A DNA stretch of 12,832 nucleotides, taken from NCBI GenBank assembly GCA_964525635.1, contig CAZGJX010000109.1, forward strand, positions 1-12,832. The letters run 5' to 3'. The translations under genes were made by a program, and so were the position numbers. The notes below the pieces were generated by a model. It made no database searches. It was not told where the DNA came from and saw only the letters and a program-made list of their open reading frames with translations. Below are positions 2,054-3,622 of the stretch, piece after piece. The stretch comes from an uncultured archaeon (GTDB lineage: Archaea; Asgardarchaeota; Lokiarchaeia; Sigyniarchaeales; SOKP01). The first letter of the stretch is position 1; each line of letters begins with the position of its first letter.

Positions 2054-3622
2054 TTAAATACGTTCAATAAGCATTCCACCTAAAATAATGGGACCACCTG
2101 TGCTATTATAAACTTTTTCTGCCCTTTTTAATTTAGTCTGAGTGTTTGAATAAACAGTAAATATTTTATCTCCCTCCTTTATTCTAGCTCCTTGTTTTTT
2201 ATATATTCTTACACCAGAGGATTTTGAATAAGGACATCCCGCTGTTTTGGCAATCAGATTTATTATAGAATTATCAATTTGAGTTATATGCCCTGATTTA
2301 AATGAATAGAAATCCTTTTTATGAGGGCCCAATTTAATATCTTCGGGCATTATTTCAGGATCACCTCCTTGAAGTTCAATAATTTCTTTCATCTTGGCAT
2401 ATGCTTTTCCAGTCTTTAAAATTTCTTTTGCTAATTTTTGTCCTTCACCTTTTGGTGTTTTTCCAGCCATTTCTAAAAGTATCCCAGCTAAAGAGGTTGA
2501 TTTTTCTAATAATGAATTAGGACCAGTACTATAATCTTGTAATAATGTTAAAGCTTCTTGAGCTTCTATTGCTGGACCAATACAATGACCAATTGGCTGG
2601 TGTGCTAATGTTAACGCACACTCCGCTTCTAGACCAACATTTCTGGCTATTTGATTGAAAATATATGCAAAATTTTTTCCATCTTCAGGAGTAGGAAATT
2701 TTGTTCCTTTACCTACAGGGATGTCTAAAACTATTTTTTTTACACCCATACTTAATTTTTTTGCTAATATTGATGGGATCATTAATCCTACTGGATCAAA
2801 ATGAAGAGGTCGTTCTACTTCAATTAATACATTATCTGCTGGTGCTATATCTAAAGCACCACCCCATATGATACATGCTCCCAATTTTGAGATAAATTCT
2901 TTTACCTTTTCGGAGCTAAATGATATGGGTGCTAATACCTCCATTGAATCAGCGGTTCCAGAAGGAGAAGTTATCGCTCGTGTACTTGTTTTTGGAATTG
3001 TTAATCCTGCCGATGCTATGATTGGGACAATAATCAGAGAGACTTTGTTACCCGGAACTCCACCTTTTAGCTAAATTTACTTATTGTAAATTTATGTGCT
3101 ATGTTTGTCATAGACTTCCGGGCCAAAATTAAATTTTCGACCACTTCTCCCCTCAGATAATGTCAAAGCTGTCATTTCTTCCTCATCCATACCAGTAATA
3201 GAAATACCCGTTATGAATGAAGCAATCTCAATTTTAGATAAATACCCAGAAACAGCATCAGTTACAATGGAATCTATCTCATCAGCATTTAATTTAAATC
3301 CTTTTATTTTTTTTTGAATATTTTTATATGAATTTGGAGGTTCAGCAGGAAGAACAGAAACTTCGGATTTGTCTTTTAAATATTTCATTTCTCTTAGGGT
3401 ATCAACAAAAATTCCAATTTCACCTGGTGCTACTATTGAATCAGAATATGCTATTTTAAGAATAGCTACCCAAAATTTCTCAGTTAAATTTTTTGATTCA
3501 ATATTTTTAATAAAAACACGTTCACCTACTTTCTGACCAATTTTTTCTGCATCGATATGGTTGAGAACAACATCTTTCATGTTACCTGTTTCAAAATTTA
3601 TTTTTTTTACTTTTAATCTCAT
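2054..3622 (-). CDS. deoA: AMP phosphorylase (thymidine phosphorylase family), two exons join(3622..3096,3065..2054), 512 aa after removing a 30-nt insert
   Basis: The ORF 3092-3622 ends in VYDKHST. The same frame resumes at 3064 with GGVPGNKVSLIIVPIIASAGLTIPKTSTRAITSPSGTADSMEVLAP and runs into ORF 2054-2944 (WGGALDIAPAD, SILAKK, DIPVGKGTKF, QPIGHCIGPAIEA). The N-terminal extension and these motifs match archaeal AMP phosphorylases. No other lesion seen. Confidence 0.93.
3066..3095 (-). other. Candidate 30-nt bulge-helix-bulge/loop (EndA-type) intron in the AMP phosphorylase mRNA
   Basis: mRNA reads UAGC-AC^A-UAAAUUUAC-AAUAA-GUAAAUUUA-GCUA-AA^A-GGUGGA: 4-bp central helix UAGC/GCUA, 3-nt ACA bulge, perfect 9-bp intron stem, then AAA. 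Cutting after the second nucleotide of each bulge joins AGC AC|A GGU GGA = S-T-G-G. Confidence 0.8.

Follow-up and report, generated by a model that had tools for sequence, protein, structure and literature searches.

A candidate EndA-type mRNA intron in the AMP phosphorylase gene of a Lokiarchaeia archaeon and similar inserts in other genes of its genome

Analysis of a 12,832-nucleotide stretch of DNA from an uncultured Lokiarchaeia archaeon (the window) showed that the AMP phosphorylase gene on the minus strand (3622-2054) consists of two pieces, split within the conserved active-site motif. [quoted passage not shown] This reading, put forward in the initial annotation, was supported by same-site inserts in relatives, covariation, selected exons, sister inserts in the same genome, and the presence of EndA and RtcB.

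The split gene and the fold of its insert

The insert of 30 nt (3095-3066, minus strand) lies between DKHS-AC and A-GGVPGNK and contains in-frame TAA, TAA, and TAG. The unspliced RNA encodes only a 176-aa fragment, while excision of 3095-3066 regained DKHSTGGVPGNK and a 512-aa AMP phosphorylase ORF (3622-2054). A profile search matched the two halves to positions 1-165 and 167-500 of TIGR03327, and the full-length gene, read through the stops, scored 553 bits against a curated cut-off of 535. No second full copy of the gene was found in the genome. When all nearby 30-nt deletions were tried, DKHSTGG was regained by 3095-3066 and 3094-3065 only, and these two yield an identical product because an A is repeated. 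The RuBisCO form III gene is intact in the same genome, and two R15P-isomerase-like genes are open but scored below the family cut-off. The parts of the gene are as follows.

3096-3622, minus strand: exon 1, from Met1 to DKHS plus AC of the Thr codon (TIGR03327 1-165; ORF start 3622; dN/dS 0.05-0.13 in intron-bearing pairs)
3066-3095, minus strand: putative intron, 30 nt, phase 2, three in-frame stops, 13% GC (homologous 29-31-nt same-site inserts in 35 other genomes)
2054-3065, minus strand: exon 2, from the last Thr-codon base and GGVPGNK to the stop (TIGR03327 167-500; PDB 4GA4/4GA5 aligned from the first residue, E ~1e-107)

A SNAP/TPR-like protein with a DUF11-like end is encoded at 3782-5113 (minus strand) of the window, and in L291, too, the AMP phosphorylase gene has a similar gene ahead of it.

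The fold of the insert is the minimum-energy structure and makes up 70% of the ensemble (z = -6.27; 0/200 shuffles folded as well). A 4-bp central helix with 9 stacked inner pairs occurred at 3/400,000 random 30-nt sites of the same genome. The elements of the fold are listed below; fractions out of 36 refer to the insert-bearing genomes described in the next section.

3098-3101, minus strand: central helix, exon strand UAGC, made of the His codon third base and Ser AGY (paired in 36/36; CAT with intron A in 26/26, CAC with G in 10/10)
3095-3097, minus strand: 5' bulge of 3 nt, AC^A, with a cut at 3096/3095 predicted from the fold and the cut rule (PMC2738675)
3072-3094, minus strand: intron hairpin h', 9-bp stem and 5-nt loop (97% of cells paired; 8/9 pairs changed on both sides, 35 sequences)
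3068-3071, minus strand: central helix, intron strand GCUA (100% of cells paired)
3064-3067, minus strand: 3' unpaired strand AA^AG, internal loop, with a cut at 3066/3065 predicted from the fold
3110-3123, minus strand: outer exon-exon helix, exon 1 arm, pairing with 3063-3050 (MFE; duplex -16.1 kcal/mol in genes with the intron and -9.1 kcal/mol in those lacking it)
3050-3063, minus strand: outer exon-exon helix, exon 2 arm (MFE fold; exon-exon duplex energies)

The central helix is formed by 3101-3098 with 3071-3068 and the 9-bp stem by 3094-3086 with 3080-3072, and AAA stands at 3067-3065. A3102 faces G3064, leaving the second "bulge" with no adjacent exon helix and as part of an 8x4 internal loop, which is closed by 3114-3110 with 3063-3059 and by 3123-3116 with 3057-3050; the outer helix has 13 bp. 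The canonical hBHBh' arrangement, with a second 3-nt bulge directly closed by an exon-exon helix, was not present at this loop. Since the second bulge opens into the 8x4 internal loop, the motif is classed as a relaxed HBh'/BHL type and not as a canonical BHB. The 4-bp exon-intron central helix of EndA introns was fully paired in 36/36 with compensatory changes, and the HBh' arrangement was seen as an ACA/ACU 3-nt bulge in 36/36 followed by the 9-bp stem (97% paired). Judged at the sequence level, the insert shows every feature expected of a relaxed EndA intron. The predicted cuts, each following the second base of a bulge, would give the correct product, and the register is exact and unambiguous in several sister introns of the same genome.

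The position, length, and three stops of the insert, and the coordinates of helix, bulge, stem, and AAA reported in the initial annotation, all held on recheck, and the EndA cut rule applied there again gave DKHSTGG and 512 aa. The BHB/BHL fold that it had proposed stands for the helix, the bulge, and the hairpin; its second bulge proved to be an internal loop, with the outer exon helix not adjacent.

In the proposed mechanism, four exon bases of the pre-mRNA would pair with four intron bases, placing the bulge and intron hairpin on one side of this central helix and the internal loop and long exon-exon helix on the other. A two-subunit EndA, whose catalytic subunit carries a Crenarchaea-specific loop, would then cut at 3096/3095 and 3066/3065, that is, after the second base of each unpaired strand. 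RtcB would join AC to A, by which the Thr codon of DKHSTGG and the 512-aa AMP phosphorylase would be rebuilt. The genome encodes two EndA paralogues, on C18 and C105, and an intact RtcB, on C119. For one EndA, the best alignment was to the catalytic subunit of Aeropyrum pernix, 3P1Z (E 4e-37), with Tyr, His, and Lys kept and a KPR loop. The KPR loop is tied to relaxed-motif cleavage and has been reported across Asgard archaea (PMC5829648), and from this homology we infer that the host EndA is able to cut relaxed motifs.

Same-site inserts in related genomes

A pattern search of 400 Asgard genomes found the same-site insert in 36/135 genomes of the window's family (10 genera) and in 0/265 of the other Asgard genomes; the 36 are related, and counts over them are of non-independent events and overstate independence. 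When all of GTDB was scanned for the 30-nt form, 30 matches came up, each bearing the label Promethearchaeota, another Asgard name, or "uncultured archaeon", and the insert-bearing records were mostly deposited as Promethearchaeota/Asgard MAGs. The inserts are 29 nt (n=2), 30 nt (n=31), or 31 nt (n=3) long, and five copies also shift the reading frame because their lengths are 29 or 31 nt.

The initial annotation had called for a comparison of orthologues, and this showed 36 genomes to have inserts at the same position, with compensatory changes that include exon-intron covariation. Across the alignment, 96% of cells were paired and 10/17 pairs had changed on both sides, a level reached by 0/500 shuffles, while slid controls gave 35-50%. 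The third base of the exon His codon covaried with its intron partner (T with A, 26/26; C with G, 10/10). The Ser codon was AGY in 36/36 intron-bearing genes vs 30/59 intron-less genes. The exon-exon duplex had an energy of -16.1±2.9 kcal/mol in intron-bearing genes and -9.1±2.4 kcal/mol in intron-less genes (within one genus, about -15.8 vs -8.9), and synonymous change between intron-bearing gene pairs was lower near the junction than elsewhere in the gene.

Values of dN/dS were 0.05-0.13 on both exons of intron-bearing genes, the same as in intron-less genes, and by this measure both exons are under purifying selection. The rear exon was open for 335-342 codons in 35/36 assemblies, with one contig ending early. 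Public annotation presents the intron-bearing copies as 294-341-aa fragments or hypothetical proteins. In one genome, G236 (L077, L283), an AMP phosphorylase gene with the intron occurs alongside one lacking it, either as a paralogue or through bin contamination.

On a quick protein tree, the intron needed 18 changes, of which strong branches force 8 or more, vs 28 for shuffles; neither the family's deepest clade nor other families carry it. A single origin is suggested by the insert sequence that the copies have in common, with precise loss or exchange occurring repeatedly afterwards. Between close intron-plus and intron-minus pairs, the flanks differed more than the remainder of the gene (0.50 vs 0.27), a pattern for which local tract replacement, or selection against a cut site left behind, is a better fit than clean loss of the cDNA type. 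Intron-less close relatives exist, with 97% protein identity. Six full-length homologues close to intron-bearing genes, checked at the DNA level, had weak exon-exon pairing and, in 5/6, a TCN serine; four compared full-length homologues were 80-89% identical to the nearest intron-bearing gene. The idea that such full-length homologues are spliced transcripts was rejected, their DNA features fitting genomic intron-less alleles. The spliced-junction pattern, searched in JGI contigs, gave no match.

Other inserts in the genome and alternative explanations

The wider class of micro-introns suggested in the initial annotation was supported by further such inserts in the same genome. A homology census together with motif-first candidates gave 20 inserts in 19 genes, a lower bound. 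The genes are those for EF-2, eIF2-gamma, DnaG, three RNA polymerase subunits, RNase HII, a RadA-like protein, thioredoxin, E1/ThiF, IorB, CinA, an LsrF-type aldolase, PFK, mevalonate kinase, MoxR, two small GTPases (one with two inserts), and AMP phosphorylase; the RNA polymerase subunits, MoxR, mevalonate kinase, PFK, and small GTPases were named from motifs or from G050 ORF homology.

A motif-free census, for which the protein reference was 2.0 Mb of G050 (46% of that genome, another family, single contig), gave 11 frame-breaking inserts in the range of 16-65 nt, every one of them 28-40 nt long. A 4/4 central helix with at least 6/7 inner pairs was found in 7/11 of these, in 0/32 in-frame open inserts, and at 0.06% of random sites, each census structure being the best pick among up to 7 near-equal junction positions. 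Profile positions were continuous over the junction in DnaG (26/27), CinA (72/73), RadA (196/198), and also thioredoxin. Inserts interrupt DnaG, eIF2-gamma, RNase HII, and two RNA polymerase subunits, none of which has a second copy, and about 20 relatives share the break in DnaG at that site; as these single-copy genes are indispensable, the cell must have some way to pass over the inserts. With a 4-bp helix and a cut following the second base of the bulge, the EndA geometry predicts an exact motif-restoring junction for 18 inserts, often with no positional freedom. Most inserts fall in conserved motifs, partly due to the search approach and partly, we infer, because imprecise loss there would be lethal.

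The reciprocal census over 2.0 Mb of G050 gave no convincing intron. A de novo motif scan was not discriminating, with 2- or 4-nt-bulge controls giving similar counts, and its coding filter missed the AMP phosphorylase intron itself; therefore candidates were retained only where homology or a recognisable motif backed them. Those at C86, C132, C25, C2, C54, C87, and C43, which have no recognisable split motif, were dropped. A MITE or dispersed repeat was likewise rejected for the AMP phosphorylase insert: no terminal repeats or dispersed copies were found, the junction repeat is 1 nt, and the 16-mers of the insert had no other copy in the genome.

One small GTPase gene (L111, G000 C10, plus strand) carries EndA-type inserts at 23524-23551 and 23696-23725, about 145 nt apart. 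Neighbouring RNA polymerase A-type subunit genes (G000 C71, plus strand) carry inserts at 17580-17619 and 20882-20911, the former, of 40 nt, being the longest found. The DnaG match of L238 (G038 C183), from another family (f3), also begins at profile position 26, and the insert class may on this basis extend past the window's family.

Four other accounts of the AMP phosphorylase insert were weighed. Ribosome bypassing, as in T4 gene 60 or the mitochondrial byps, would involve take-off at ACA and landing 30 nt on, with no splicing. A stop and hairpin directly after the Thr codon are indeed like hop elements (PMC8211752), and in the DnaG and aldolase inserts a codon at one end is repeated at the other. 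However, take-off and landing codons match in 1/36 AMP phosphorylase inserts (ACA vs AAA in this genome), the first stop lies 5-8 codons into the insert in 26/36, and 16/18 inserts of this genome have no matching codon, many of them splitting a codon with no direct repeat; exon-intron and exon-exon pairing would also go unexplained, and bypassing is considered very unlikely. A two-piece enzyme, with a 176-aa front half ending at the stop and a rear half restarting in or after the insert, finds some support in 23/36 relatives, where gene callers begin the rear half at an in-frame TTG within the insert. This possible start of the second half was counted against EndA splicing, as were the relaxed motif and the non-adjacent outer helix. 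Re-initiation nevertheless fails in this genome, which has TAG in place of the candidate start codon; beginning at the following start, 2944, would cost 40 residues including GGVPGNK. With the break inside a conserved motif and the 29/30/31-nt lengths and paired structure unexplained, this arrangement is extremely improbable.

A real intron could instead be removed by another nuclease, or at the DNA level in part of the population, an option to which the non-canonical motif and the close intron-less relatives (97% protein identity) lend themselves. The intron-less relatives differ at many flanking synonymous sites and are therefore old alleles, not fresh excisions; terminal repeats and dispersed insert copies were not found, and EndA geometry gives exact motif-restoring junctions across 18 inserts. 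The chance of such a route is put as exceedingly small. A pseudogene or assembly error might be suspected from public entries that are fragments or hypothetical proteins and from a genome that is a 245-contig MAG, but the site is common to 36 independent assemblies, the rear exon is open in 35, and dN/dS equals that of intact genes; the comparative sequence data refute both, leaving them practically no probability. Stop readthrough was also rejected, there being three stops here and five frame-shifted relatives.

Returning to EndA/RtcB splicing, at least 20 such putative introns were found in this genome, and mRNA splicing is therefore probably routine in the window's family. It is a more tentative proposition, rather doubtful as a whole, that this Lokiarchaeia family has a genome-wide obligatory layer of mRNA splicing run by the tRNA-splicing enzymes, with dozens of introns of about 30 nt lying in core genes, actively gained and exchanged between lineages, and with the expression of those genes dependent on EndA/RtcB as a regulated switch, in an archaeal counterpart of HAC1/XBP1 splicing; the part of it that concerns many genes is well supported.

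Apart from the inserts, the window contains a heterodisulfide reductase A-like gene (10335-8374, minus strand) with one in-frame TGA at 9732-9730 (DDCSI*ILGP), which is probably selenocysteine. Just downstream, an MvhD/VhuD-like gene (about 8330-7900, minus strand), missing from the ORF list, has two in-frame TGA (CWK*GY, VAG*YR) and is probably a second selenoprotein. A tRNA-Sec is present in the genome. The 661-aa ORF (5253-7238, plus strand), which ends in a His-rich stretch, and the 124-aa ORF (7273-7647, plus strand), which has two CxxC pairs, had no Pfam or NCBIfam match. A winged helix-turn-helix fragment (PF13592; 12518-12763, plus strand) at the contig end is probably a transposase remnant. 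Elsewhere in the genome, two dense, mostly intron-less tRNA clusters (G000 C54 19098-26273, 22 tRNA genes; C146 5782-7574), in contrast to the scattered, intron-rich tRNAs of the remainder, are possibly a virus, a mobile element, or a foreign contig.

Significance and comparison with known introns

In the literature searched, cbf5 is the one gene on which the splicing of archaeal coding sequences rests. In the present case, a family in the phylum closest to eukaryotes appears to need mRNA splicing for DNA primase, RNA polymerase, and translation factors, and the question of mRNA introns before the spliceosome becomes directly testable. Gene callers fragment core genes in these MAGs, by which metabolic reconstructions (the AMP/RuBisCO route) and marker-gene phylogenies are affected.

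The HAC1/XBP1 intron of eukaryotes is a short, non-spliceosomal mRNA intron that is cut by the endonuclease Ire1 at two stem-loops, under stress regulation, and joined by tRNA ligase (RtcB in animals). The parallel with the AMP phosphorylase insert lies in the predicted cut-and-ligate scheme.

The archaeal mRNA introns named in 2020 were that of cbf5 and one Haloferax 5' UTR intron (PMC7714728). No report of Asgard mRNA introns was found among open-access papers and bioRxiv (subscription journals were outside the scope), and two Asgard papers, searched by term, gave introns of tRNAs only. The HVO_1309 5' UTR intron of Haloferax volcanii (PMC7714728) is likewise an mRNA substrate of the archaeal splicing endonuclease; unlike the AMP phosphorylase insert, it lies in an untranslated region and breaks no reading frame. 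Non-canonical HBh'/BHL tRNA introns, which are abundant in Asgard archaea (bioRxiv 10.64898/2026.10.13.758758; PMC11291895; PMC5829648), share with the insert the geometry, a similar size, an AT-rich hairpin, and the predicted enzymes.

The cbf5 intron of Desulfurococcales and Sulfolobales (Watanabe 2002; Yokobori 2009, PMC2738675), which has an unconventional BHB at a catalytic codon and is supported by cDNA (PMC2738675), resembles the insert in being short and lying in a coding sequence at a catalytic motif, in its unconventional BHB-like fold with predicted cuts after the second bulge base, in the heteromeric EndA of the host, and in its patchy occurrence among relatives. The cbf5 of the present genome is open over profile positions 5-192. 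The two differ in phylum and gene, and cbf5 is a single gene with cDNA proof, whereas the putative introns of the present genome are spread over at least 19 genes. The mechanism has a precedent in cbf5, and the novelty lies in the host and the scale.
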